64,000 nucleotides of DNA, taken from NCBI GenBank assembly GCA_965215125.1, contig OZ244052.1, positions 1,856,001 through 1,920,000 of the forward strand, in the 5' to 3' direction. A model generated the notes under the pieces. It did no database searches. It had not been told where the DNA came from and worked only from the letters and a program-made list of their open reading frames with translations. Every line of letters begins with the position of its first letter. Within the stretch, counting starts at the first letter, position 1. The DNA comes from an uncultured candidatus Porisulfidus sp. (GTDB lineage Bacteria > Pseudomonadota > Gammaproteobacteria > Poriferisulfidales > Oxydemutatoraceae). A program made the translations under genes and the position numbers. Below are positions 34,791-51,411 of the stretch, piece by piece.

Positions 34791-35080
34791 TTCGTTATTG
34801 TAACTGTTGCGTGTAATACCGGCGGTCGTCGTTTCTGTGGTCAAAGCCGCATGGCGTATTATTTCACAATCCAACCGTCGGGCACCTTTTATATACTCGA
34901 ATACAACCGTTCATCGGATAATGAATTCTCGGGCTTTGATATCGGCTAATATTTGGAAAGGTTGTGTGTACAAGAACTATTTACAATTTTTGAGCAATGG
35001 GAGAAAATGGTGTCTAAATTGTTGAAACTTATAAGCATGGTAAAGAAACGATGGATAAATACATCCAACAAGGATAAGAC

Positions 35081-36163
35081 ATGAGTTCTTTTGTAGAATT
35101 AGAAAAATCTAAAAAGGGTCTTTCACATAAAAGCCGGATGAATTGCCTGATAGATTCAATACAGTGTGGAGATGCCGCTTTTTTACTGAAACAGTTACCG
35201 GATAATAGTATTGATTTAGTAGTGACATCCCCACCGTACTATATGCAGCGAAATTATAACGGGACAGGGATCGGGACCGGGCATGAAAAAACAGTTGAGT
35301 CTTATATTGACTCCCTACTTGAAGTATTTTCGGAAATTGTCAGGGTAGTAAAGCCTTCGGGAAATATCGTTTATAACATCGGTGATAAATATCTGAATGG
35401 TTCACTTTTACTTGTGCCGTACAGATTTGCCGTAAAAGCAACTAATGACCATAGTGTGAAGCTTGTCAATGAAATAACTTGGGTAAAGAGAAACCCTACA
35501 CCGAGGCAGTTCGGGCGGCGTCTGGTAAGTAGCACGGAACCATTTTTTCATTTTGTAAAAGGTGCAAAATATTATTACAACCCCGATGAATTTTTTAACG
35601 AGATAGATGAAAGAAAACGGCATAAGCCTTCAAATAGATTAGGAGAAAGATATAGGACATTGATTGAAAATTCGGACTTATCTTCGGAACTGAAAAGAAA
35701 AGCGCATAAATCTCTCGACGAGGTTATTGAAGAAGTAAAAGAATCTAAGATAGAAGGATTTCGTATGAAGATTCGCGGAATACACGCAGAGGCTTTCGGG
35801 GGGCAAGAAGGGGGGCGTAAAAGCCAGATCGAGAAGAACGGTTACACCATTATTAAAATACATGGAAAGAAAATGAAAAAGGATGTGATTATTTCGTCGG
35901 TTGAGTCAATTCCCGGAAATAAACACAGTGCTATATTTCCTCTCTCAATTATCAAAGAAATTATAAAACTGCTTTCACCTAAGAACGGCATCGTTCTAGA
36001 CCCGTATAGCGGGAGTGGCACAACGGCTATTGCCGCTATGGAAGAAGACTGCCATTATCTGGGTATTGATATAGACTCCGCTTATTGTGAGCTCTCAAGA
36101 AAGCGGTTAGCAGAATGTCAAGCGAGAATGAGCGAACATCAAAAAAAACAACAGTTGTGGTAG
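35081..36163 (+). CDS. Beta-class amino-DNA methyltransferase (SPPY, probably N4-cytosine)
   Basis: Motif IV TSPPY at the N-terminus, HSAIFP, and motif I VLDPYSGSGTT at the C-terminus; AT-richer than the flanks. Confidence 0.93.
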   Translation: MSSFVELEKSKKGLSHKSRMNCLIDSIQCGDAAFLLKQLPDNSIDLVVTSPPYYMQRNYNGTGIGTGHEKTVESYIDSLLEVFSEIVRVVKPSGNIVYNIGDKYLNGSLLLVPYRFAVKATNDHSVKLVNEITWVKRNPTPRQFGRRLVSSTEPFFHFVKGAKYYYNPDEFFNEIDERKRHKPSNRLGERYRTLIENSDLSSELKRKAHKSLDEVIEEVKESKIEGFRMKIRGIHAEAFGGQEGGRKSQIEKNGYTIIKIHGKKMKKDVIISSVESIPGNKHSAIFPLSIIKEIIKLLSPKNGIVLDPYSGSGTTAIAAMEEDCHYLGIDIDSAYCELSRKRLAECQARMSEHQKKQQLW

Positions 36164-42250: not shown

Positions 42251-44055
42251 TACCCTGTTGCTCCCGTCGGTATAGTGCTTTGTCGGTCTAGGTGCGTTTG
42301 TAGCCACATTTCAAGCAACGCGCAATGCCAAAGTTTGTTGCCTTGTATCGGTGTCAGTTGGTTTTCCTCCGAATTAAGCAAGTGTGTTATGTAGTTGCGC
42401 TGAAATAATTCGCGTTCGCGGCAAGCATTTGAGTTTAGGGTGTCGCACATCATTTCGTAAAACATTCCTTGCACATATTTTAGAGCAGGAACCGGAAAAT
42501 AGCCTTTTTTTCGATCTATCACTTCGGGTGGCAGATAGCGGCGAGCGATTTTTTTAAGGCTATATTTGCCACCGTTGCCGAGCTTAAGTTCGGGCGGCAT
42601 GGCACAGACGGTTTCTACTAGATGCTGATCCAAAAAAGGCACTCTCGCCTCAACACCCCACGCCATCATCATATTGTCCAATCGTTTGACCGGATCGTCG
42701 ACGATTAAAGTTTCTATATCAAAGCATAAAACGGTGTTTATATAGTCGGGTAATTTGACTTTTCCGAGGCGATTTGCGACTAAAGGCGAAGTGCTGTCGG
42801 GTATGTGCAAGCACGGTGCAACGGTTTTTAAGTATTCGTCGTGGCTGCGGTCGAAATAATGTCGCCTAAATCGTTGCAACGGCGTACCCGAGGCACGGTG
42901 CATCTCGGGATACCAAAAATAGCCGCCGAACACTTCGTCGGCACCTTGTCCGCTCTGCACGACCTTAATGTCCGCACCGACTCGCTCGGCGAGCAGATAA
43001 AAAGCGATGCAATCTTGCGCCGGCATTGGTTCCGCCATCTTTGCAATCGCCTCGGGCAGCCGCTTATATAATTGTGTATCGGATACTCTAAAGCGATGAT
43101 GGTGTGTGTTGAAACGTTTGACGACCGCATCGGAGTAGATGAACTCGTCGCCGATCTCCTTACCTTTGCTCTCGAAACCGATCGTATAAGTCTTGATATT
43201 AGAAACATTTAGCTTGGCGAGCAGTGCTACGAGTAGACTGGAGTCCAATCCACCCGACAGCAAGACACCGACTTCTACATCGGCTATTTCAAAACGTTTT
43301 TTAACGGCTTTCAACAGTTCGGATTCAATTAGTTCTATCCATTCGTCCTCTTGCATATCGGAAAATCGCGCCTGCTCGGATAAGGACCAATAACGATGCT
43401 TAACAAAAGCCCCGCTGCGCTCAATCGACATTGTATGCGCAGGTTCGAGCTTGCGTATGCCGCACAACAAGGTACGGGGCGCGGGGATGACTGCGTGCAA
43501 ACTCAGATGACGATGTAGCGCGACCGCATCGATTTCGGTATCAATCTCACCGGCTGCCAGCAACGCCTGCGGGTTTGAGGCAAAGCGAAAAAACTTCGCG
43601 GTGCGCGCATAATAAAGTGGTTTGATTCCCAAACGATCGCGAGCAACAAAAAGAGAACCGTGTCGACGATCCCAAATTGCAAATGCAAAGATACCGTCCA
43701 GCCTTTGAACGCAGGCTTCCCGCCAGCGATGATAGGCTTTTAGGATAACCTCGCTATCGCTGGTGCTAAAGAAGCGATAACCGTAGGATTCCAAGCGAGT
43801 GCGTAGCGTGCGATAGTTATAGATAACCCCGTTGAACACCAACACTAAATCCAAATCGGGATCCACCATAGGTTGGGATCCGGTAGCCGATAAATCTATG
43901 ATCGCAAGCCGTGCATGGGCAAAACCTATTTGCCCGTCAAGCCAAGTCTGTCGACTATCGGGACCGCGAAAGTCAATATGCGCTAACATCCGCTGCAGAC
44001 TCCCGGCACTTGCCATCCGACCCCCGAAACAAAATTCACCGGCAATACCACACAT
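42250..44055 (-). CDS. Class II glutamine amidotransferase of the asparagine synthase family, NAGGN (N-acetylglutaminylglutamine amide) amidotransferase-like
   Basis: N-terminal MCGIAGE (start 44055), RGPD, LSGGLDSS, VQSGQGADEVFGGYFWYP, DDPVKRLDN and KGYFPVPALK. Confidence 0.85.
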   Translation of the reverse strand: MCGIAGEFCFGGRMASAGSLQRMLAHIDFRGPDSRQTWLDGQIGFAHARLAIIDLSATGSQPMVDPDLDLVLVFNGVIYNYRTLRTRLESYGYRFFSTSDSEVILKAYHRWREACVQRLDGIFAFAIWDRRHGSLFVARDRLGIKPLYYARTAKFFRFASNPQALLAAGEIDTEIDAVALHRHLSLHAVIPAPRTLLCGIRKLEPAHTMSIERSGAFVKHRYWSLSEQARFSDMQEDEWIELIESELLKAVKKRFEIADVEVGVLLSGGLDSSLLVALLAKLNVSNIKTYTIGFESKGKEIGDEFIYSDAVVKRFNTHHHRFRVSDTQLYKRLPEAIAKMAEPMPAQDCIAFYLLAERVGADIKVVQSGQGADEVFGGYFWYPEMHRASGTPLQRFRRHYFDRSHDEYLKTVAPCLHIPDSTSPLVANRLGKVKLPDYINTVLCFDIETLIVDDPVKRLDNMMMAWGVEARVPFLDQHLVETVCAMPPELKLGNGGKYSLKKIARRYLPPEVIDRKKGYFPVPALKYVQGMFYEMMCDTLNSNACRERELFQRNYITHLLNSEENQLTPIQGNKLWHCALLEMWLQTHLDRQSTIPTGATG

Positions 44056-44165
44056 CGTGGGTAAATTATACCTTGTGAGAGTAGAATAGAATCGCCTTAA
44101 TTGACGGAAGCCACAATCCCGCGATACGGCGGTAATCAAAATATGAATACGCTACCGAGGAAGAG

Positions 44166-46268
44166 CTAACTATTCGGTACATCCTTGTCTTTAACATCCC
44201 AAACACCCGGTGCTACACAAACTAAAGACGGGTGCGCCGGTATATGTAAAATTTTATTGATACCGGCTACTTTTTGTAATCGTTCTTTGATCTCGCTTAC
44301 CGTCAACGGGTGTCCGGCCTCTTTGATAATGGCAATGATTGCTTGAGTTTTGTTAAAACGTTGCTCGCCTTTGTTATAACCTTCCGTCGCTGTCCAAGTC
44401 ATTCTATTGAGACAGGTCAGTCTTTTGGATTTAGAAAGCACGATGTTTAGCAAATGGATGCCTAATTTGTCGGAGACTTCGTCTGCTTGTTCCGACAATT
44501 TAGAGAGTATTTCAAAACAATGCCATTGCTTTTTTGTCTTATCGGCGTAGACGATAGACTCGGCTTCACGGCAGATACGGGCAATCTGTTCGTCGGAGAA
44601 GGGTATATGTTTGTCAAGGCCGTATACCCCTTTTCTAAAAGAAAAACCAACCCTGTTTGCCGTAGGACATACTTGTAGTGGAGTTAGATTTAATCCCAGC
44701 TTAAGTTTTATCGCCTTGATAATTTCATGATGGTGCATCGGCGAGTCGGATTCGGAAAGGATTACTTTGATGGTTCTATGTAGCCCTCTGCCGTAGTCTA
44801 CAAATGTACGCGTACCGTCGGGGTTAATCTTAAAGTAACATAAATCGGAGACATGATCCCACAATAGATTTTTGAATTTCTCTGCACTATCGGGCAATAA
44901 TCTCCGTACATGTGAGAAAGCCTCGGTTTCGCTCCACCCTTTATCTACGGACGAAGATAATAATGCTTTTGCTGCCTCTACGGTACGCTTCCAAACAGAT
45001 TGCTCGATTGAGCTGAGATAGTATTTATTGCCGATTTTAATCACTCGTATATTGTGTTCTTTCATTGCGTTAATTAGATTTCCGAGAAATGTTTGATGCG
45101 AGTGGATGCCGCTGAACCATAGATCGTTAGTTTCTATGTGATCTAGAGATAACGGAAAGTCCGCCTCATTTGATAATCGGATAATTTTTTGCCTGAAGAT
45201 ATACCCCAAAAGAGAATTTCTAAAATTCTTTATCATCGCAGCATGGGTCAGAGTGATATATATGATTGACTTGGCGCAGGTGTTCGAGATTTTTTGCATG
45301 GTTTGAGAGGTAGCCTCGAATTCCATCCGACGCGTAAAAATATAAAGATCGGTAGGATAGAGCGACGATAGAAAACGTCTTATACTTTCAATGAAGGTGA
45401 GCTTAAGGTGTATGGAGACCCTCGAGTTCGGTATCAAAGCGATATTTACGGGGCAATCTATATCGGATAATAGCTTTCCGAGTAGCGCGGTATTTAAGCA
45501 ATTTAGAATATTTTGCAAAGATTGACGTCCGAACATTCTTTTACCGAGTAATCTTTCCGGTGAGCATGTTGCAAGATCCGAAATTGTTTCAATACCGGCT
45601 TCCTTCATAATGCAAACGGGTCCTTTCGGGAAATTTATGTCTATCAGCTTCCATTTACCTAGCCACGGGAGAGCTAAATGCGCCAACTTACACGGATCTT
45701 TGCAGTTATCTGCGTAGCGTAGTACTTTCATCAGCTGTTGGATTTTGTCCGGCTCGGCTATTGCGTCGCGTATAAGATCATCGTCAATATCACCATCCCG
45801 AGGTTGTTTTTCATCGGGTATCGGATTATCGTCGAGAATTTTGTTTAAGAAAATACACAGACTATACAGAGTTTTGTAGCCGAAAGGTGTTTGCTTGTGC
45901 AATTTTTCGGTTGTCCAAGTGGCAAGATCTTCAACTGTTTGTATATTGTTTTTTTGCAGAGCTTTGTAAATTTTAGGCGTGGTATTCGAGCTGGTCAATT
46001 TTTGTTTTGCCAACCACGGTGGTGCGGCGCGCGCAATCGCGCATGGATCTTTGCGGTTTCCACCGGTTAAATGACGTACCCGAAACATACTCAGTTTTTG
46101 TCGGGTAATCCGATCCAAATCATGCTCGGCATTGAGATATGAAACATCGTTATAGATTTTATGCGTGTTCAATATCTCTATGGCTTCGGGATTTTCTTTT
46201 ATATACAAAGCGACCCAATCTTGTGGTGCTTTGATGACGGTATTTGTTTTAGATCTATAAGTTTCCAT
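44166..46268 (-). CDS. Large hypothetical protein with two RNA-polymerase alpha-CTD-like repeats and C-terminal winged-helix-like segments
   Basis: Internal duplication DPC...PWL...NIQTVEDL...FGYKTL / DPC...PWL...GIETISDL...FGRQSL; AGGAGG upstream of the ATG at 46268. Confidence 0.7.
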   Translation of the reverse strand: METYRSKTNTVIKAPQDWVALYIKENPEAIEILNTHKIYNDVSYLNAEHDLDRITRQKLSMFRVRHLTGGNRKDPCAIARAAPPWLAKQKLTSSNTTPKIYKALQKNNIQTVEDLATWTTEKLHKQTPFGYKTLYSLCIFLNKILDDNPIPDEKQPRDGDIDDDLIRDAIAEPDKIQQLMKVLRYADNCKDPCKLAHLALPWLGKWKLIDINFPKGPVCIMKEAGIETISDLATCSPERLLGKRMFGRQSLQNILNCLNTALLGKLLSDIDCPVNIALIPNSRVSIHLKLTFIESIRRFLSSLYPTDLYIFTRRMEFEATSQTMQKISNTCAKSIIYITLTHAAMIKNFRNSLLGYIFRQKIIRLSNEADFPLSLDHIETNDLWFSGIHSHQTFLGNLINAMKEHNIRVIKIGNKYYLSSIEQSVWKRTVEAAKALLSSSVDKGWSETEAFSHVRRLLPDSAEKFKNLLWDHVSDLCYFKINPDGTRTFVDYGRGLHRTIKVILSESDSPMHHHEIIKAIKLKLGLNLTPLQVCPTANRVGFSFRKGVYGLDKHIPFSDEQIARICREAESIVYADKTKKQWHCFEILSKLSEQADEVSDKLGIHLLNIVLSKSKRLTCLNRMTWTATEGYNKGEQRFNKTQAIIAIIKEAGHPLTVSEIKERLQKVAGINKILHIPAHPSLVCVAPGVWDVKDKDVPNS

Positions 46269-46360
46269 AATGTCGATAATTCCTCCTAATCGTTTGATCA
46301 AATAAATTAAATGAAAGATTAGTCCGATTTTGGCACATAAAAAAGGTGTTTTGTTATATT

Positions 46361-46393
46361 TCCGACAAACGGTAGCTGAAATCCGACGAAAGC
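46361..46393 (-). promoter_or_regulatory. LytTR/AlgR-like direct-repeat pair upstream of the alpha-CTD gene
   Basis: On the minus strand, GCTTTCGTCGGA and CCGTTTGTCGGA exactly 21 bp apart. Confidence 0.6.
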
Positions 46394-46453
46394 TACTTTG
46401 AGGTTGTTAAAACCGTAAAGCGTCCCTGTGTCACATATTCCCTTTTTATAAAA

Positions 46454-46559
46454 CCGTTCGTCGGGTATTTAGGGCTGTTCATCAAAATTAGGAAAATCGT
46501 GCTACAGGGTGGGATAGGGTATACCTTAGTTTGCCCTAAGGCATTAATTCACATATAAT
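46454..46559 (+). promoter_or_regulatory. LytTR/AlgR-like box pair plus sigma70 promoter
   Basis: CCGTTCGTC (46454) and CTGTTCATC (46475) 21 bp apart; TTGCCC (46531)-17 bp-TATAAT (46554). Confidence 0.7.
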
Positions 46560-46573
46560 TCAGAGGAGTAAAA

Positions 46574-46846
46574 ATGAATACAATGATCAACCGAAGAACG
46601 GAGACTTTTAACACGATGCACGAATTGGAACAAGCGGGAATGTCGAGAACGCAAGCGGAGATAACGGCGCGTGCGATTGACCGACAAGTATCGATGTCAA
46701 TGCAAGAAGTATTAGATAAAATAGACGCTCGTTTTGATGCCGTTGAGAGGAGATTATCGTGGCTATACATAGAAAGCATTGTGGCTATATGTGTTATAGG
46801 TGCCGGTTTTACCGGTGTCATCATTGCGTTGTTGCGCATGGGTTAA
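46574..46846 (+). CDS. Small DUF1640/CCDC90 (mempromCC)-like protein: head, coiled coil, C-terminal TM anchor
   Basis: FNTMHELEQAGMSRTQAE head, IDARFDAVERRL coil, a hydrophobic C-terminus and a GAGGAG RBS. Confidence 0.72.
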   Translation: MNTMINRRTETFNTMHELEQAGMSRTQAEITARAIDRQVSMSMQEVLDKIDARFDAVERRLSWLYIESIVAICVIGAGFTGVIIALLRMG

Positions 46847-46856
46847 ATTACCAAAG

Positions 46857-46988
46857 CTACTCAAAGCTATTTTTTGACGCTTCATAGGTCAAGCAACGCC
46901 AGCTACCTCCATGTCCAGTTGCGGTATTCCCGGCTGCCATAATGTTTAACGAAGCATTTACATCCGCATTGTCATCGTGTCCGCAATC
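46857..46988 (-). pseudogene. Orphan 3' fragment of an IS200/IS605- or IS607-type tnpB with its overlapping omega-RNA/right-end region
   Basis: The minus strand translates to (D)CGHDDNADVNASLNIMAAG..., the end of the zinc ribbon plus the RuvC-III motif. It continues GGACATGGAGGTAGC...ACCTATGAAGCGTCAA. Confidence 0.75.
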
Positions 46989-46989
46989 A

Positions 46990-47205
46990 TCATAGAAACT
47001 TGATCATCAACCCGACACCTGCAAGGGTTATTCCTACAGCTCCATATATCTGCTTGATCAGTCGTGCTTCTAGTTTTGCTATGGTCGTTTCTAAATCTTT
47101 ATGAGTTACTAAATTATCGGTTTTGCGCAATTTGGTAGCAACCTCTAAAACCTCCTCATTAGAGGCACCGGGGATTTTTTCTAATAACGATATCACTGTA
47201 TTCAT
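46990..47205 (-). CDS. Small DUF1640/mempromCC-like membrane-anchored coiled-coil protein (paralog 1)
   Basis: NLVTHKDL neck-like motif, short coil, C-terminal TM and an AGGAG RBS. Confidence 0.72.
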   Translation of the reverse strand: MNTVISLLEKIPGASNEEVLEVATKLRKTDNLVTHKDLETTIAKLEARLIKQIYGAVGITLAGVGLMIKFL

Positions 47206-47220
47206 TGTTTTCTCCTATAG

Positions 47221-47328
47221 ATTATATTTGAATCGATACCCTAGGGCAAATCAGTGCATAGGGTATCCTTTTTCGAAATATGTAGCTTTACTAAATTCAA
47301 TGAGTGGTAGCAAATATCCGACGAACGG
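47221..47328 (-). promoter_or_regulatory. LytTR/AlgR-like box pair plus sigma70 promoter
   Basis: On the minus strand, CCGTTCGTC (47328-47320), CCACTCATT 21 bp later, and TTGCCC-17 bp-TATAAT (47249-47221). Confidence 0.7.
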
Positions 47329-47375
47329 CACCTTGGGCTGTAGGAACAGACTATTTCCCTACTGTGGAGGGATGT

Positions 47376-47667
47376 GAGGCTGTTGAAAAAGTGCGGACAT
47401 CGCACAAATCCAACCGCTGTACGCCACATAATTATCCAAACCACCTGTAGGGGCAGGACAAAGCCGCCGATTGAGCCGGTAGGTCAATCGGCAATTCTAA
47501 TGTCTGCCCTTAAGTACCGTTCTGCACAGCCGTAACCGCTTGCGCCGTATGGTTTTGGTTTCCATAAATTGGATGAATGAATGTATAAATCGTGCAGGCG
47601 CAACGCGTTACGGGCGGACATATAAGTCCGCCCCTACCACTCTATGAAATACTTTTTCAACAGCCCC
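47376..47667. mobile_element. MITE-like non-autonomous element (~290 bp) containing a REP doublet
   Basis: Terminal inverted repeats G(A/G)GGCTGTTGAAAAAGT at 47376-47392 and 47651-47667; no transposase ORF inside. Confidence 0.75.
47447..47637. repeat. Inverted pair of GTAG-type REP hairpins (REPIN-like); the left one carries family B in its loop
   Basis: GTAGGGGCAGGAC[B]ATGTCTGCCCT at 47447-47510, and GTAGGGGCGGACTTATATGTCCGCCCG on the minus strand at 47611-47637. Confidence 0.75.
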
Positions 47668-47673
47668 ACGACA

Positions 47674-47736
47674 CAACCACCCCGTCAGGCTGAATAGAAC
47701 CGTCGATTGAACCGGTAGGTCAATCGGCGGTTTTAT
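47674..47736 (-). repeat. Family A right half joined to a full family B palindrome
   Basis: CAACCACCCCGTCAGGCTGA followed by ATAGAACCGTCGATTGAACCGGTAGGTCAATCGGCGGTTTTAT. Confidence 0.82.
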
Positions 47737-47748
47737 GGTATCACTTCA

Positions 47749-47976
47749 TTATAAAAACTGGATCATCAATCCGACACCTGTGAGCGTTATTGCAACGGTT
47801 AATCCACCCACCGCATACATCTGCTTGATCAGTCGTGCTTCTAGTTTCGCTATAATTGTTTCTAAATCTTTATGAGCTACCAAATTATCGGTTCTGCGCA
47901 ATTTGGTAGCAACCTCTAGAACTTCCTGATTGGAAGCACCGGGGATTTTTTCTAATAACGATATCACTGTATTCAT
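47749..47976 (-). CDS. Small DUF1640/mempromCC-like protein (paralog 2, recent duplicate of 46990-47205)
   Basis: Nearly identical N-terminus (MNTVISLLEKIPGASN.EVLEVATKLR.TDNLV.HKDLET), with a 4-aa difference in the TM region. Confidence 0.72.
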   Translation of the reverse strand: MNTVISLLEKIPGASNQEVLEVATKLRRTDNLVAHKDLETIIAKLEARLIKQMYAVGGLTVAITLTGVGLMIQFL

Positions 47977-47991
47977 TGTCTTCTCCTATAG

Positions 47992-48099
47992 ATTATATTT
48001 GAATCGATGCCCTATGGCAAATCGGTATATAGGGTATCCCTTCCCGAGATGTGCCTGTTCACTAAACTCAATAAGCGGTAGCAAATATCCGACGAACGG
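47992..48099 (-). promoter_or_regulatory. LytTR/AlgR-like box pair plus sigma70 promoter
   Basis: On the minus strand, CCGTTCGTC (48099-48091), CCGCTTATT 21 bp later, and TTGCCA-17 bp-TATAAT (48020-47992). Confidence 0.7.
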
Positions 48100-48178
48100 T
48101 CATAGAGGGTGTGTATACTAGATATATGTAGAGGCAGATTTTGTATTCTGCAATCGGCAAACAAGTTAGGATAATAAA

Positions 48179-48454
48179 ATGACTAAGCAAACGGAAATAG
48201 TGAAAGCGTATCTAGAACGACACTTTGTAGGCACCGAAATAGACATTACCGAGGTACCCGAGGAGCACGGTTGGGGTTATAAAGTATCGTGCGAGGAGGG
48301 GCAATTCAATTTGTTGGTGCTCGACGAGGCTTTTGAAGGGTTAGACGACGAGCAAGCGGCAAGCCAAATGGAAACCTTCCAAGTTGCGGATGTGATGCGC
48401 GACATGGAAGGTTTTACTATTACCGTCACGAATAGCGGTTGTATTTTCAGATAA
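48179..48454 (+). CDS. Small acidic hypothetical protein
   Basis: 91 aa ORF with an AGGA RBS and protein-like composition. Confidence 0.7.
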   Translation: MTKQTEIVKAYLERHFVGTEIDITEVPEEHGWGYKVSCEEGQFNLLVLDEAFEGLDDEQAASQMETFQVADVMRDMEGFTITVTNSGCIFR

Positions 48455-48469
48455 AGGCGAAATCGCCGG

Positions 48470-48742
48470 CTATTCTGCGGTAGTCGGGTCTATAGTCGCT
48501 TTGATCTCGGAAATTTTATTTGCAGGAAACCCGCCCTCTTCGGCGTGCTTCTTGATGCTTTCTATATCGGGTGCGATATAGGTGCAATAGACTTTGTCGG
48601 CGGTGACTTGGCTTTCAACCCACTGAATCTGCGGTCCCATATTTTTTAGAATACCGCATGATTTCTGCGAGATGCCTTGCAGGTCATCCGCCGATAGATT
48701 ACCCGCACCGGGGATATCTCTTTCTATAATGTATTTAGGCAT
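48470..48742 (-). CDS. DUF4242 / SCO4226-like nickel-binding protein
   Basis: MPKYIIER.IPGAG, IQW.ES, DKVYCTYIAPD and HAEEGGFPA. Confidence 0.88.
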   Translation of the reverse strand: MPKYIIERDIPGAGNLSADDLQGISQKSCGILKNMGPQIQWVESQVTADKVYCTYIAPDIESIKKHAEEGGFPANKISEIKATIDPTTAE

Positions 48743-48818
48743 AATTTCCTCCGTTGTTATAATTTGAGATTCAACTAATTTGCGATATTATACCGCTAAT
48801 TATCTTAAACAGAAGAGA

Positions 48819-49514
48819 ATGGTCGTTTTATTTAACAGAATCCGAGAAAGCAAAACTTTTCAAATAATCGTCGTAGCACTAATCGTTGCCTCGGCTTTAT
48901 TGATCGGTGCCGACACTTTTAATCTGGAGTATAGATACAAGGCCACTATTCAGGTACTTAGTCAAGGCGTGACAATTTTCTTTTTAATTGAAATCATAAT
49001 CCGCTTTATCGGTGAACCGCATAAAAAAACTTTTTTCCGAGATGGCTGGAATGTATTCGATACGGTTGTCGTTGGGATTTCTTTGGTTCCCATAGGACCG
49101 GGTCCTTCGGTATTAATCGCACGCTTACTGCGTATCTTTAGAGTACTCCGTATTATATCGGTGATGCCGGAATTAAAAGTGCTAATTGAATGTTTGCTCA
49201 AATCTTTGCCGCGTATACTTTATACGAGTCTGTTGCTGTTCATCATTATGTATATCTACGCAGCGGCGGGTTCGTTGTTGTTTGAGTTCACCGACCCGGA
49301 ACGTTGGAAGGATATTGCGACCGCTTTATTCACACTGACCCAAGTACTCACACTATCCAGTTGGGAACAGGTATTTTTGCCGTTGCAGGCGGTGCATTGG
49401 TGGGCGTGGATATACCTTTATAGCTTTATTGCAATCGGTTCTATCACTATCTTAAACTTAATTATTGCAGTGCTGGTAGATGTCGTGATGGAACTCAAGG
49501 GTGATAAAGAGTAA
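48819..49514 (+). CDS. Bacterial voltage-gated cation channel (BacNav-like ion transporter)
   Basis: FFRDGWNVFD, S4 RLLRIFRVLRII, pore TLTQVLTLSSWE and S6 LNLIIAVLV. Confidence 0.9.
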   Translation: MVVLFNRIRESKTFQIIVVALIVASALLIGADTFNLEYRYKATIQVLSQGVTIFFLIEIIIRFIGEPHKKTFFRDGWNVFDTVVVGISLVPIGPGPSVLIARLLRIFRVLRIISVMPELKVLIECLLKSLPRILYTSLLLFIIMYIYAAAGSLLFEFTDPERWKDIATALFTLTQVLTLSSWEQVFLPLQAVHWWAWIYLYSFIAIGSITILNLIIAVLVDVVMELKGDKE

Positions 49515-49678: not shown

Positions 49679-50494
49679 CTAAGCATAAGGCACCAATACT
49701 TCACCCTTACCACCGACGGCGAGGTCGCCTATGTATCTTCGGATCAGCTTCTTGCGAGGAAGGTTTTGCAATGCCGGCATCAGTTGACCGATATGCTTGT
49801 AGAGTAGTATCAAAAAATCCATATTGTAATTAGAAGGTTGGCTGATGAAGGTATCGCCGAGCGTTTCGGCGGAACTCGCATCGCCGAGTAGCACGGTGCC
49901 GCGATGCATGCCATAAGCGCAGCGACTGCCGTTTTGTTTGAGCACGACGAGGTTTCCGGCTTTCATATGTGTAGCACCGTAGTCTCCGTTGTTGCCGCGC
50001 ACGACGATCAGACCGCGACGCATCAAATTGGCGGTACGGTCGCCTGCATTACCCATGATTAGCACGGTGCCACCGGACATTCCTTGCACCGCACCGATAG
50101 AAGCACCGCCGGTTGCATCGCCGGCATTGCCCTCGACGATGACGGTGCCACCGGACATGCTACATGCGGTATAATGACCGCTATCCCCGGTAATCTCCAA
50201 CTGTCCGCCGCCCAAAGTCGCTGCCGCATAATCTCCTACCGAACCCTCTACTTTGATTTGGTTTGCTTCCATTTTTGCGCCTACATAATCAAACTGCGTG
50301 CAGTCACCGTTAATCAATAAACTTTTGCTTGAGTCCTCTGCTATGTTGAATAAGTCGCCTACTGCAATATCGCCTTCCGAACTCGGTAGTGTTTGCTTTG
50401 CCAGTTGCTTTGCGGAGAGGCTATTGCAATAATCCGGCGTGAGCGTCTCGGCATTGATGCGCATCGTCGGGGAGGATTTTAATGTGAGTCTCAT
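49679..50494 (-). CDS. fhcC: Formyltransferase/hydrolase complex subunit C (FwdC-like GXGXG beta-helix)
   Basis: Gly-rich M.GG.V.V.GNAGD repeats, MRRGLI and GDLAVGGKGE. Confidence 0.92.
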   Translation of the reverse strand: MRLTLKSSPTMRINAETLTPDYCNSLSAKQLAKQTLPSSEGDIAVGDLFNIAEDSSKSLLINGDCTQFDYVGAKMEANQIKVEGSVGDYAAATLGGGQLEITGDSGHYTACSMSGGTVIVEGNAGDATGGASIGAVQGMSGGTVLIMGNAGDRTANLMRRGLIVVRGNNGDYGATHMKAGNLVVLKQNGSRCAYGMHRGTVLLGDASSAETLGDTFISQPSNYNMDFLILLYKHIGQLMPALQNLPRKKLIRRYIGDLAVGGKGEVLVPYA

Positions 50495-51411
50495 GCGCCT
50501 ATAATCTCCCACAAATGAAATTGATATTTTCCTAGATTCCCACCGTAATTGCCTGCCGAGATTGTCGTGATTCCCTCGGATAATCCCAACTCGCAGACTG
50601 CGGTAATGCCGACTCGCATCGCATCTATAATGTCCTGTACGTTGAGCCCGTCTATTACGATTTCCATCACCGCACCGGTATTGGCGCGTAGTTTGCTATC
50701 AACCATGCCTTTTAGGGTAGGACAATACTGTTCGTTCGTAGATGCACCGAGAAACTTATAGCGAGAGCCGACCTTGGAACCCGAGCGCACGCCGCCGCCG
50801 GGAAACGGCAAAACAAGATTCGGCAAGTCCGAGATGCTATCGATTGCGGCTTCGCATGCTTGCAGTGCTTGCGACGACGAGCGAGCAAAGATCAAAAAAT
50901 TACCGCCGCCGATCCCCGATGCCACGCCGGTATCGTCCTCGCAAATAAACTCGCCGTCCATCACCGGCACCCGCCAATAGCGTGTTTCTCCTATCACTTT
51001 GGAAGACTGATAGCCGTCTCCGAAATAACGAACATAGCGTCCGAGTGCAATTCTACGCTCGCCGTCCATGCCGGCGAATACCGCGCTGGTAGGGCAGGTC
51101 AACACGCATTGGGCGACTCGTCGCGTCAGTTGATCGCTTAGATTTCTGGTAGAAGTCGCAAACAGCAAAACCGAATAGCCCGGTCTGCTGTCGGGTGTCT
51201 CGGAGGATTTGTAGCGGCGTTCTATGCCGGCTTCTACATTGCAACCTATCACCGAAGTTGCAAAACCGACCGTCGTGCTTGCCGCATAGTGCGCCCATTT
51301 GTAGTTGATCGCAGTAATGATAATACGGGTTGCTCTCATGCCAAAAGCCTCGGCGTAGGTATTCTCTATCTCTACGCCGTTGATAGTAATGCCTTCTATG
51401 GGGTTCGACAT
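50491..51411 (-). CDS. fhcD: Formylmethanofuran:H4MPT formyltransferase (Ftr)
   Basis: NTYAEAF, GFATSVIGC..EAG, QCVLTCPT, FGDG, GGGN, RSGSKVGS and SAGNYGG.LG. Confidence 0.96.
   Translation of the reverse strand: MSNPIEGITINGVEIENTYAEAFGMRATRIIITAINYKWAHYAASTTVGFATSVIGCNVEAGIERRYKSSETPDSRPGYSVLLFATSTRNLSDQLTRRVAQCVLTCPTSAVFAGMDGERRIALGRYVRYFGDGYQSSKVIGETRYWRVPVMDGEFICEDDTGVASGIGGGNFLIFARSSSQALQACEAAIDSISDLPNLVLPFPGGGVRSGSKVGSRYKFLGASTNEQYCPTLKGMVDSKLRANTGAVMEIVIDGLNVQDIIDAMRVGITAVCELGLSEGITTISAGNYGGNLGKYQFHLWEIIGA

Follow-up and report, generated by a model that had tools for sequence, protein, structure and literature searches.

Within a 64,000-nucleotide window of the genome of an uncultured candidatus Porisulfidus sp. 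(contig OZ244052.1, positions 1,856,001 to 1,920,000 of the forward strand), the stretch 46302-48178 contains three small genes, here called w1, w2 and w3. Comparison of the w1 and w2/w3 protein-family profiles revealed no detectable likeness (hhalign probability 1.9%). The three leaders nevertheless align over ~125 bp, and with their boxes excluded the leaders of w1, w2, w3 and two w1-type genes elsewhere in the genome gave local alignment scores of 25-59, compared with a mean of 8.6 and a maximum of 14 for shuffled sequences. A sequence-only reading of the window had claimed homologous leaders with a fixed set of parts, and these were recovered in full: each leader carries a perfect copy of the 9-bp box CCGTTCGTC (9/9), a second copy 21 bp downstream (matching 7, 5 and 5 of 9 positions), a TTGCC(C/A)-17-TATAAT promoter whose -35 element starts 77 (w1), 79 (w2) and 79 bp (w3) after the first box, and GGAG together with ATGAATACA (3/3). 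We put at about 0.7 the probability that w1-w3 belong to an AlgZ/AlgR-type LytTR regulon of the single LytTR two-component system of this genome. The coordinates of the features are collected in Table 1; positions are those of the window unless given as genome positions.

The host genome is a single contig of 2,220,706 bp rated 99% complete, and the reversed sequence served as the control for motif counts. The 11-mer CCGTTCGTCGG occurred 21 times in the genome and once in the reversed sequence. All but one of these sites (20/21) were found 53-190 bp ahead of a co-oriented start codon; the remaining site is antisense within a radical-SAM gene. Allowing up to one mismatch, the 13-mer ACCGTTCGTCGGA gave 29 sites in the genome versus 0 in the reversed control, with 23 of the 29 located upstream of and co-oriented with a gene start. 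The extended box consensus was tACCGTTCGTCGGAwAT. Analysis of box pairs matching at least 15/18 positions revealed 22 pairs at the 21-bp spacing, whereas any other spacing between 15 and 30 bp gave 0-4 and the reversed control 3.

The genes behind the 20 co-oriented 11-mer sites comprised 15 small C-terminally anchored coiled-coil genes, comEA, a type IV pilin gene, an SLT lytic transglycosylase gene and two N6_N4 DNA methylase genes. Weaker tandem sites (threshold 14/18, outside long open reading frames (ORFs)) were also identified ahead of radC, a PilL2-like gene, a secretin gene, six PDDEXK_2 genes and a 711-amino-acid (711-aa) gene; a T2SSE ATPase gene lies 4 kb downstream of the box-preceded secretin gene on the same strand. 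The 711-aa gene is the divergent neighbour of w1. The box pair that aims at it (minus strand) was absent from the sequence-only description, and CAAAAT starts 40 bp after the proximal-box start in its leader. That description had envisaged a possible LytTR regulon formed by the amplified small-gene unit; w1-w3 are only a small part of the set, which also takes in comEA, pilin, radC, secretin, nucleases and methylases. Taken together, the members suggest a programme of pilus formation, DNA uptake and DNA handling.

The six PDDEXK_2 paralogues (PD-(D/E)XK 'transposase'-type nucleases) behind tandem boxes lie at genome positions 70027, 565721, 1005357, 1216840, 1432412 and 1433737, an assignment made by Pfam on two of the six and by N-terminus similarity for the other four. 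A third methylase gene is in the window itself (35081-36163, plus strand; a 360-aa N6_N4 DNA methylase) and has a single 13-mer with one mismatch (ACCGTTCATCGGA) ahead of it, with no pair. Within the stretch 34907-36163 (plus strand), its leader is homologous to that of a w1-type gene at genome position 1988152; at this site the small gene has apparently been lost or replaced. A palindrome resembling a repetitive extragenic palindromic (REP) element, of the CCGATTGAxCCGGTAGGTCAATCGG type, was present at 47460-47499 and 47695-47734, and the same element is found elsewhere in the genome immediately ahead of the box pairs of comEA and radC.

Conservation of the motif was analyzed in 31 genomes (the host, 18 others of the same family and 12 of three sister families). 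The exact 13-mer was present in 10 of the 18 other family genomes (4/4, 4/4 and 2/5 in three genera) and in 0/12 sister-family genomes; control hits were zero with one exception. Both a LytTR domain and comEA were present in 18/18 family genomes and 0/12 sister-family genomes, an agreement that is weak evidence because the genomes are kin. Upstream of comEA, tandem boxes 21 bp apart were identified in 17 of 20 orthologues, representing five genera. These same 17 leaders had a -10-like hexamer (TAAGAT, TATCGT, TATTTT, TATGTT etc.) 40-42 bp after the proximal-box start and the start codon at +77 to +90, while the upstream DNA was otherwise unalignable and much richer in GC, with a spacer that ranged from AT-rich to almost pure GC. 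The radC leaders in other genomes displayed a comEA-like box pattern that was less complete. Boxes that are kept where the surrounding DNA is not argue for a functional protein-binding site and not a mere duplicated cassette or mobile-element end, and the conservation points strongly to such a site. Two other genera had the box ahead of tail-anchored coiled-coil proteins at 7 of 18 fetched sites; one of these seven proteins scored 42.5 bits, above the Pfam DUF1640 cut-off of 33.5, and three more scored 23-32 bits.

The predicted comEA 5' leader in the 17 genomes opens with an anti-Shine-Dalgarno stretch able to pair with the ribosome site. The pairing is CCTTT/AAAGG in the host genus and CCTCCTT/AAGGAGG in GC-rich genera, so that the pairing is kept and the letters differ. 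This pairing may represent a translational control element.

A search of the host genome for a LytTR/AlgR homologue, which the sequence-only reading had called for, returned exactly one LytTR domain (PF04397), in a 251-aa REC + LytTR protein encoded by a gene that overlaps the end of a 345-aa membrane-protein ORF with a His_kinase match (PF06580, E 1.5e-16). The regulator and kinase genes map to genome 714.7-716.5 kb. Homologues of the regulator outside the lineage share 39-45% identity and are AlgR by name in their source records (JGI, NCBI); on the basis of these names the regulator may be an AlgR orthologue. The AlgR core of Pseudomonas aeruginosa is the same CCGTTCGTC, as described for algD RB1 and RB2, algC ABS1 and rhlA in two papers, and it dominates the chromatin immunoprecipitation sequencing (ChIP-seq) consensus; CCGTTTGTC and CCGTTCATC are also AlgR-bound sites there (PMC4064291, PMC4787818). 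Direct repeats with a 12-bp spacer are given as the LytTR hallmark in the AlgZR review, according to which P. aeruginosa AlgR sites are not necessarily in a direct-repeat layout. The AlgR core match, the 21-bp-specific pairing, the conservation ahead of comEA and radC, and a lone LytTR regulator beside a His_kinase-type sensor all agree with the earlier assignment of a LytTR/AlgR-type site. The boxes behave as such sites and would be bound by this regulator. Autoregulation was considered and dropped: the 600 bp upstream of the kinase gene are free of boxes matching at least 7/9, and a 13-mer with one mismatch inside the kinase coding sequence was read as chance.

The position of the promoter relative to the boxes was analyzed in 26 leaders (16 leader families) aligned on the promoter-proximal box. 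A -10-like hexamer, defined by A at position 2, T at position 6 and at least 4/6 matches, was present at +39 to +42 from the proximal-box start in 17 of the 26 leaders and 10 of the 16 families, against a background of 12% (binomial tails 2e-10 and 2e-6, respectively, for an interval picked after inspection of the data). The 17 positive leaders included those of comEA, pilA, a methylase gene, the 711-aa gene and the PilL2-like gene; the others belong to every member of two small-gene families of four genes each and to four more small genes. This candidate promoter, designated P1, has no -35 element, and the boxes sit at about -74 to -45 relative to it. Such an arrangement is usual for LytTR regulators. 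A second candidate, P2, is present in the small-gene leaders as well: a near-consensus TTGCnn-16/17-TATAAT promoter ~15-19 nt ahead of the start codon (21-25 nt when counted from the hexamer start). In 46250-48200 the P2 promoters of w1, w2 and w3 were the top three sigma-70-like matches (10-11/12). The sequence-only reading had paired the boxes with this TATAAT; in most other members the box pair keeps a fixed distance to a different, nearer -10 element.

A leader RNA hairpin or attenuator at w1-w3 was tried and rejected, as the three putative P1 leaders folded no better than shuffles (z -0.32, -0.57 and -0.23). The palindromes in the w1-w3 leaders overlap the -35 element of P2 and are followed by T-rich sequence, and one of the three leaders has a sense-strand mismatch that would pair only in the antisense. 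An Rfam search of 44000-49000 gave zero matches at E <= 1.

We also examined the family to which the small genes belong. In-genome profile searches revealed 36 small ORFs of the tail-anchored coiled-coil type in this 2.2-Mb genome, which fall into four groups: group A (160-170 aa), group B (65-87 aa), group C (with a 'KIPG' or 'SEIALYN' head; includes w2 and w3) and group D (includes w1). Boxes were identified ahead of 17 of the 36 paralogues, 15 with a perfect box and two with a 7/9 box at the usual position of the family. In all 36 proteins the sole hydrophobic segment lies at the extreme C-terminus, and the N-terminus is free of such segments. The sequence-only reading had called them surface proteins, a claim that this pattern does not support; a C-terminal-only segment with no N-terminal signal makes a cytoplasm-facing tail anchor the likelier arrangement, and the small proteins are more likely tail-anchored in the inner membrane with head and stalk in the cytoplasm.

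The w1-family alignment displayed a head of the form F.TMHKLE.AGMSR.QAE.TARAID, an RFDAV-type heptad stalk and a C-terminal anchor. The stalk ranged from 0 to ~10 heptads, with whole repeats gained or lost. The w2/w3 family comprised 30 proteins, all from close relatives, with a head, a VATKxD neck and an anchor; several members repeat the neck as IKDMATKSD nonads. An ATK neck is found in the relatives of w2/w3, takes the form VTHKD in w2 and w3 themselves, and is absent in w1. According to PMC4786415, DUF1640 proteins and nonad coiled coils carry the beta-layer motif [aliphatic]-A-T-K-x-[DE], to which the IKDMATKSD nonads correspond. The 19 box-less paralogues are of the 'MSEIALYN...VATKxD' type (47-90 aa), and one box-less 'SEIALYN'-type ORF lies ~320 bp before a T2SSE ATPase gene. 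A w1-type paralogue at genome 2045727-2046193 carries a 2-nt deletion ~11 codons in, giving a frameshifted N-terminus or an internal ATG start.

Membership of DUF1640, which had been proposed for all three proteins, was upheld for w1 at the profile level and left w2/w3 in doubt. Against PF07798 itself w1 scored 14.8 bits, w2 and w3 gave no match and the paralogues of the genome scored 14-18 bits, so that w1-w3 all fall short of the gathering cut-off of 33.5. When the w1-family profile was searched against 1.84 billion representatives, 183 hits at E <= 1e-3 were obtained. Among the 150 of these matches that were listed, 27 head-including hits were chosen by eye; 16 of the 27 match PF07798 from its first positions (E <= 1e-3), two of them above the cut-off. 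Alignment of the w1 family with 12 of those 27 gave an hhalign probability of 99.1% (E 6e-19), a comparison that is partly circular because the partners were found with the same profile. By these profile comparisons w1 is a remote DUF1640 relative, and w2/w3 are only suggestively related. NCBIfam gave nothing specific for w1, w2 or w3. In the ESM Atlas the nearest clusters were unnamed, with PF07798 on 10% of the members of one cluster (a lead only).

Structure prediction with three copies of w1 residues 1-64 gave a score of 0.73, compared with 0.00 for the best of three controls. Runs shared at least 92% of contacts, the partner predicted local distance difference test (pLDDT) value was at least 80, and in-register contacts were found at residues 31, 35, 39 and 46. 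Of 30 proteins solved as one-chain pairs, 20 attained this mark, as did 1 of 23 solved as single chains; because this calibration used two copies and its own alignments, the counts hold only roughly for trimers, and solved DUF1640 trimers may be remembered by the model. The w1 monomer model had a pLDDT of 70.6 with a poorly confident head. The small proteins would form a parallel, probably trimeric, coiled coil.

The sequence-only reading had further described a portable, amplified unit of promoter plus small gene, which agrees with the 17 box-bearing paralogues and with the distribution of leader types. The w2/w3 leader is common to w1-type genes, and the leader of another w1-type gene is common to a methylase gene. 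Leader types that cut across protein types indicate that the promoter unit was exchanged between genes, which fits movement by recombination. The amplified unit would consist of a regulated promoter and a miniature DUF1640 gene. As a recent tandem duplication, w2 and w3 share 87% identity between positions 47791-48090 and 47020-47319, and sister species have w1 and one w2/w3-type copy at this conserved locus.

Between w2 and w3 (47370-47730) there is a ~300-bp element resembling a miniature inverted-repeat transposable element (MITE), with inverted ends at 47374-47392 and 47651-47669 that are 95% complementary. Searched with a 4.7-kb query of this region, the host genome gave at least 89 matches, and three of the four sister genomes gave 77-139; the MITE-like part matched at many places in each genome, and most of the matches listed for this query fall on it.

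In the reading that we favour, the phosphorylated regulator would bind two direct 9-bp repeats of the CCGTTCGTC type separated by a 12-bp spacer, and once bound would activate transcription, at most members via P1, which lacks a -35 element and has its -10 element 31-33 bp behind the proximal repeat. The small-gene leaders would add the near-consensus sigma-70 promoter P2, either for basal expression or to be boosted from upstream; at w1-w3 both P1 and P2 are candidates for the promoter that the boxes drive. The products would be small inner-membrane, miniature DUF1640-like proteins with a C-terminal anchor, a helical head and a cytoplasm-facing stalk. They would be produced alongside ComEA, RadC and the type IV pilin, as well as the secretin operon, the lytic transglycosylase, the PD-(D/E)XK nucleases and the DNA methylases.

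Several observations weigh against this reading. The regulator had no AlgR-specific NCBIfam match; its NCBIfam matches were BtsR and LytR, both below cut-off, with BtsR the best at 138 versus 246 bits. No box matching at least 7/9 was found within 600 bp upstream of the kinase gene. The box was missing from 19 of the 36 paralogues, all of the 'SEIALYN' type and with other promoters, and from 3 of the 20 comEA orthologues, all in one genus that has a LytTR regulator. In the host genome dprA and comEC had no co-oriented tandem boxes, which makes the DNA-uptake reading only partial. As to the proteins, the hhalign comparison of the w2/w3 family with the DUF1640-like set reached only 71% (E 4e-5, 34 columns), and the w2 monomer model was poor (pLDDT 54). 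At w1-w3 the second boxes are weak (7, 5 and 5 of 9), the obvious promoter is P2, 77-79 bp from the first box, and the hexamer at the P1 position is only TAGGGT or TACCCT, which falls short of the -10 definition used here. That hexamer sits in a conserved GGGATA(G/C)CC common to the SLT leader. The -10 element of P2 was also clustered in phase (modulo 10.5 bp) relative to the boxes in seven leader families (R 0.68, P 0.03), and helical phasing of this kind would be consistent with distant action on P2 instead of P1.

These promoter observations bear on a possible but doubtful alternative, that the same regulator acts on P2 at w1-w3 and perhaps at every small-gene leader, with the boxes, at about -108 and -87, serving as an upstream or enhancer-like site and P1 unused there. 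P2 is the sole good promoter match in the w1-w3 leaders, and its phasing with the boxes is as expected on this alternative; the distance between the proximal box and P2, however, varies from 58 to 89 bp, compared with a distance to the P1 hexamer that is fixed at 39-42 bp in 17/26 leaders. Action from afar has precedent in P. aeruginosa, where AlgR sites lie far from the start (algC ABS1 at -94 and movable; algD at -470 and -394). The leaders of comEA and pilA have no P2 at all, and a near-consensus promoter such as P2 needs no activator.

We consider it unlikely that the boxes at w1-w3 are non-functional baggage of a duplicated promoter cassette, with constitutive expression from P2. The degenerate second boxes of w2 and w3 (5/9), the recent tandem duplication of these genes (87% identical, with the sister species single-copy at the locus) and the 19 paralogues that manage without boxes would all fit, but the first box is perfect in w1-w3 and in 15 of the 36 paralogues despite leaders that differ between families, and the sequence from the box through GGATATTT is better conserved than its flanks. 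An improbable alternative is that a factor other than LytTR recognises ACCGTTCGTCGGA, for example via CCG-N5-CGG symmetry: the 13-mer extends past the AlgR 9-mer and is partly palindromic (CCG...CGG), set against which the sites are strictly directional relative to genes, their direct-repeat pairing at exactly 21 bp is the LytTR signature described in the AlgZR review, and among the 31 genomes searched the motif was confined to those with a LytTR regulator. Finally, that the repeated unit is a mobile-element or MITE end was rejected as very improbable, even in a repeat-rich genome with a MITE-like element (at least 89 matches) between w2 and w3, since in several genera the boxes are conserved, at an unchanging distance from the start codon, ahead of comEA and radC, which are single-copy orthologues, and the MITE itself is box-free.

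What the small proteins would do within the AlgZ/AlgR-type regulon can be stated only tentatively. The system may switch a type IV pilus and natural-transformation programme in which trimers of the miniature DUF1640 proteins are working parts, as stalks of variable length on the cytoplasmic side of the inner membrane that scaffold the pilus or DNA-uptake machinery or feed back on the kinase; we regard this extension as speculative. With low confidence, the small proteins could serve as a scaffold or spacer at the cytoplasmic membrane face within this programme or in feedback on the kinase. In Pseudomonas, minor pilins have been proposed to feed back on the membrane kinase, according to one report (PMC5979040). 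In the host genome PilM_2, which would have provided a minor-pilin link, was not found; a PilY1 family search gave no match, its controls included, and carries no information. Among the papers listed from a library without most subscription journals, no bacterial role of DUF1640 was seen and no paper on AlgR/LytTR control of comEA in Gammaproteobacteria was found.

Table 1. Features of the w1-w3 locus and of the divergent 711-aa gene (window coordinates).
Feature	Position	Strand	Description
w1	46574..46846	+	90 aa; helix-turn head (FNTMHELEQAGMSRTQAE), short ARFDAVE coiled coil, C-terminal membrane segment
w1 distal AlgR-type box	46454..46462	+	CCGTTCGTC, 9/9; first base 46454
w1 proximal box	46475..46483	+	CTGTTCATC, 7/9; 21 bp downstream of distal box
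w1 weak candidate P1 -10	46515..46520	+	TAGGGT (TAnnnT) inside GGGATAGGG; 40 bp after proximal-box start
w1 P2 promoter	46531..46559	+	TTGCCC-17-TATAAT, 15 nt ahead of ATG
w2	46990..47205	-	71 aa; KIPG head, VTHKD neck, short coil, C-terminal membrane segment
w2 distal box	47320..47328	-	CCGTTCGTC, 9/9; first base on gene strand 47328
w2 proximal box	47299..47307	-	CCACTCATT, 5/9; 21 bp downstream of distal box
w2 weak candidate P1 -10	47260..47265	-	TACCCT inside GGATACCC; 42 bp after proximal-box start
w2 P2 promoter	47221..47249	-	TTGCCC-17-TATAAT
w3	47749..47976	-	75 aa; tandem duplicate of w2
w3 distal box	48091..48099	-	CCGTTCGTC, 9/9; first base on gene strand 48099
w3 proximal box	48070..48078	-	CCGCTTATT, 5/9; 21 bp downstream of distal box
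w3 P2 promoter	47992..48020	-	TTGCCA-17-TATAAT
Divergent tandem boxes	46364..46393	-	46385-46393 GCTTTCGTC 7/9, then 46364-46372 CCGTTTGTC 8/9; 21 bp apart
711-aa gene	44166..46301	-	two RNA-polymerase-alpha-C-terminal-domain-like helix-hairpin-helix domains; sub-threshold HARE-HTH match

Beyond w3, the window contains two further ORFs: one of 91 aa (48179-48454, plus strand), whose SbcC Walker-B match is sub-threshold, and one (48470-48742, minus strand) that encodes a 90-aa SCO4226-like nickel-responsive protein; no box was seen at either. Two ORFs at 49679-51411 (minus strand) resemble formylmethanofuran dehydrogenase subunit C and formyltransferase in a by-eye reading, which would suggest a methylotroph.

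Comparison with known systems sets this locus beside three kinds of regulatory system and one protein family. The Gram-negative CRP-S/Sxy competence regulons share comEA, pilin and radC with the set described here and differ in cis element and regulator class; dprA and comEC are unmarked in the host genome. The Gram-positive peptide-pheromone LytTR systems (AgrA, ComE, PlnC/D) have promoter distances that match the P1 layout, and ComE switches on competence genes. In these systems the sites are likewise two 9-bp direct repeats with a 12-bp spacer, upstream of a promoter with a poor -35 element. They belong to another phylum and use another kinase type, and no pheromone locus adjoins the kinase-regulator pair here.

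The closest comparison is with AlgZ(FimS)-AlgR. Haem genes are the neighbours downstream of algR in Pseudomonas, whereas the regulator described here is followed by ORFs read by eye as transhydrogenase. Shared with P. aeruginosa are the 9-bp core together with the CCGTTTGTC and CCGTTCATC variants, which are also known sites there, a REC + LytTR regulator beside a PF06580-type membrane kinase, and the link to type IV pilus genes. The targets there are the minor-pilin operon and alginate; here they are the major pilin, comEA, radC, secretin, nucleases, methylases and DUF1640-like genes, which suggests that comEA is under LytTR control in a Gram-negative lineage. The sites here are mostly direct repeats with a 12-bp spacer and a fixed -10 distance, so that an AlgR-type regulator would be found with the textbook LytTR layout, which is not the rule in Pseudomonas according to the AlgZR review.

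On the protein side, the comparison is with the DUF1640/CCDC90-like family (PF07798; MCUR1, CCDC90B and yeast Put6/Put7), for which the sequence-only reading used the name mempromCC; we take this to be a name for DUF1640/CCDC90 proteins, and the term did not occur in the literature searched. To our knowledge, no function is known for the bacterial members of DUF1640, which are related to mitochondrial MCUR1 and CCDC90B. The data presented here tie small DUF1640-like proteins to one identifiable regulator and to co-marked pilus and DNA-uptake genes, which makes their function experimentally approachable; the tie between box and DUF1640 is seen again in sister genera, in one case with a protein that is a bona fide Pfam member, and the programme reading, if true, would give bacterial DUF1640 proteins their first function. 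The AG...QAE helical head, the ARFDxVD heptad stalk and the C-terminal anchor are shared with that family, and its beta-layer ATK motif recurs as MATKADIKD nonads in paralogues of this genome. The proteins here differ in being shorter (71-90 aa versus a 175-position profile) and below cut-off, with no ATK neck in w1, and in occurring as 36 copies in one 2.2-Mb genome with stalks of very variable length.

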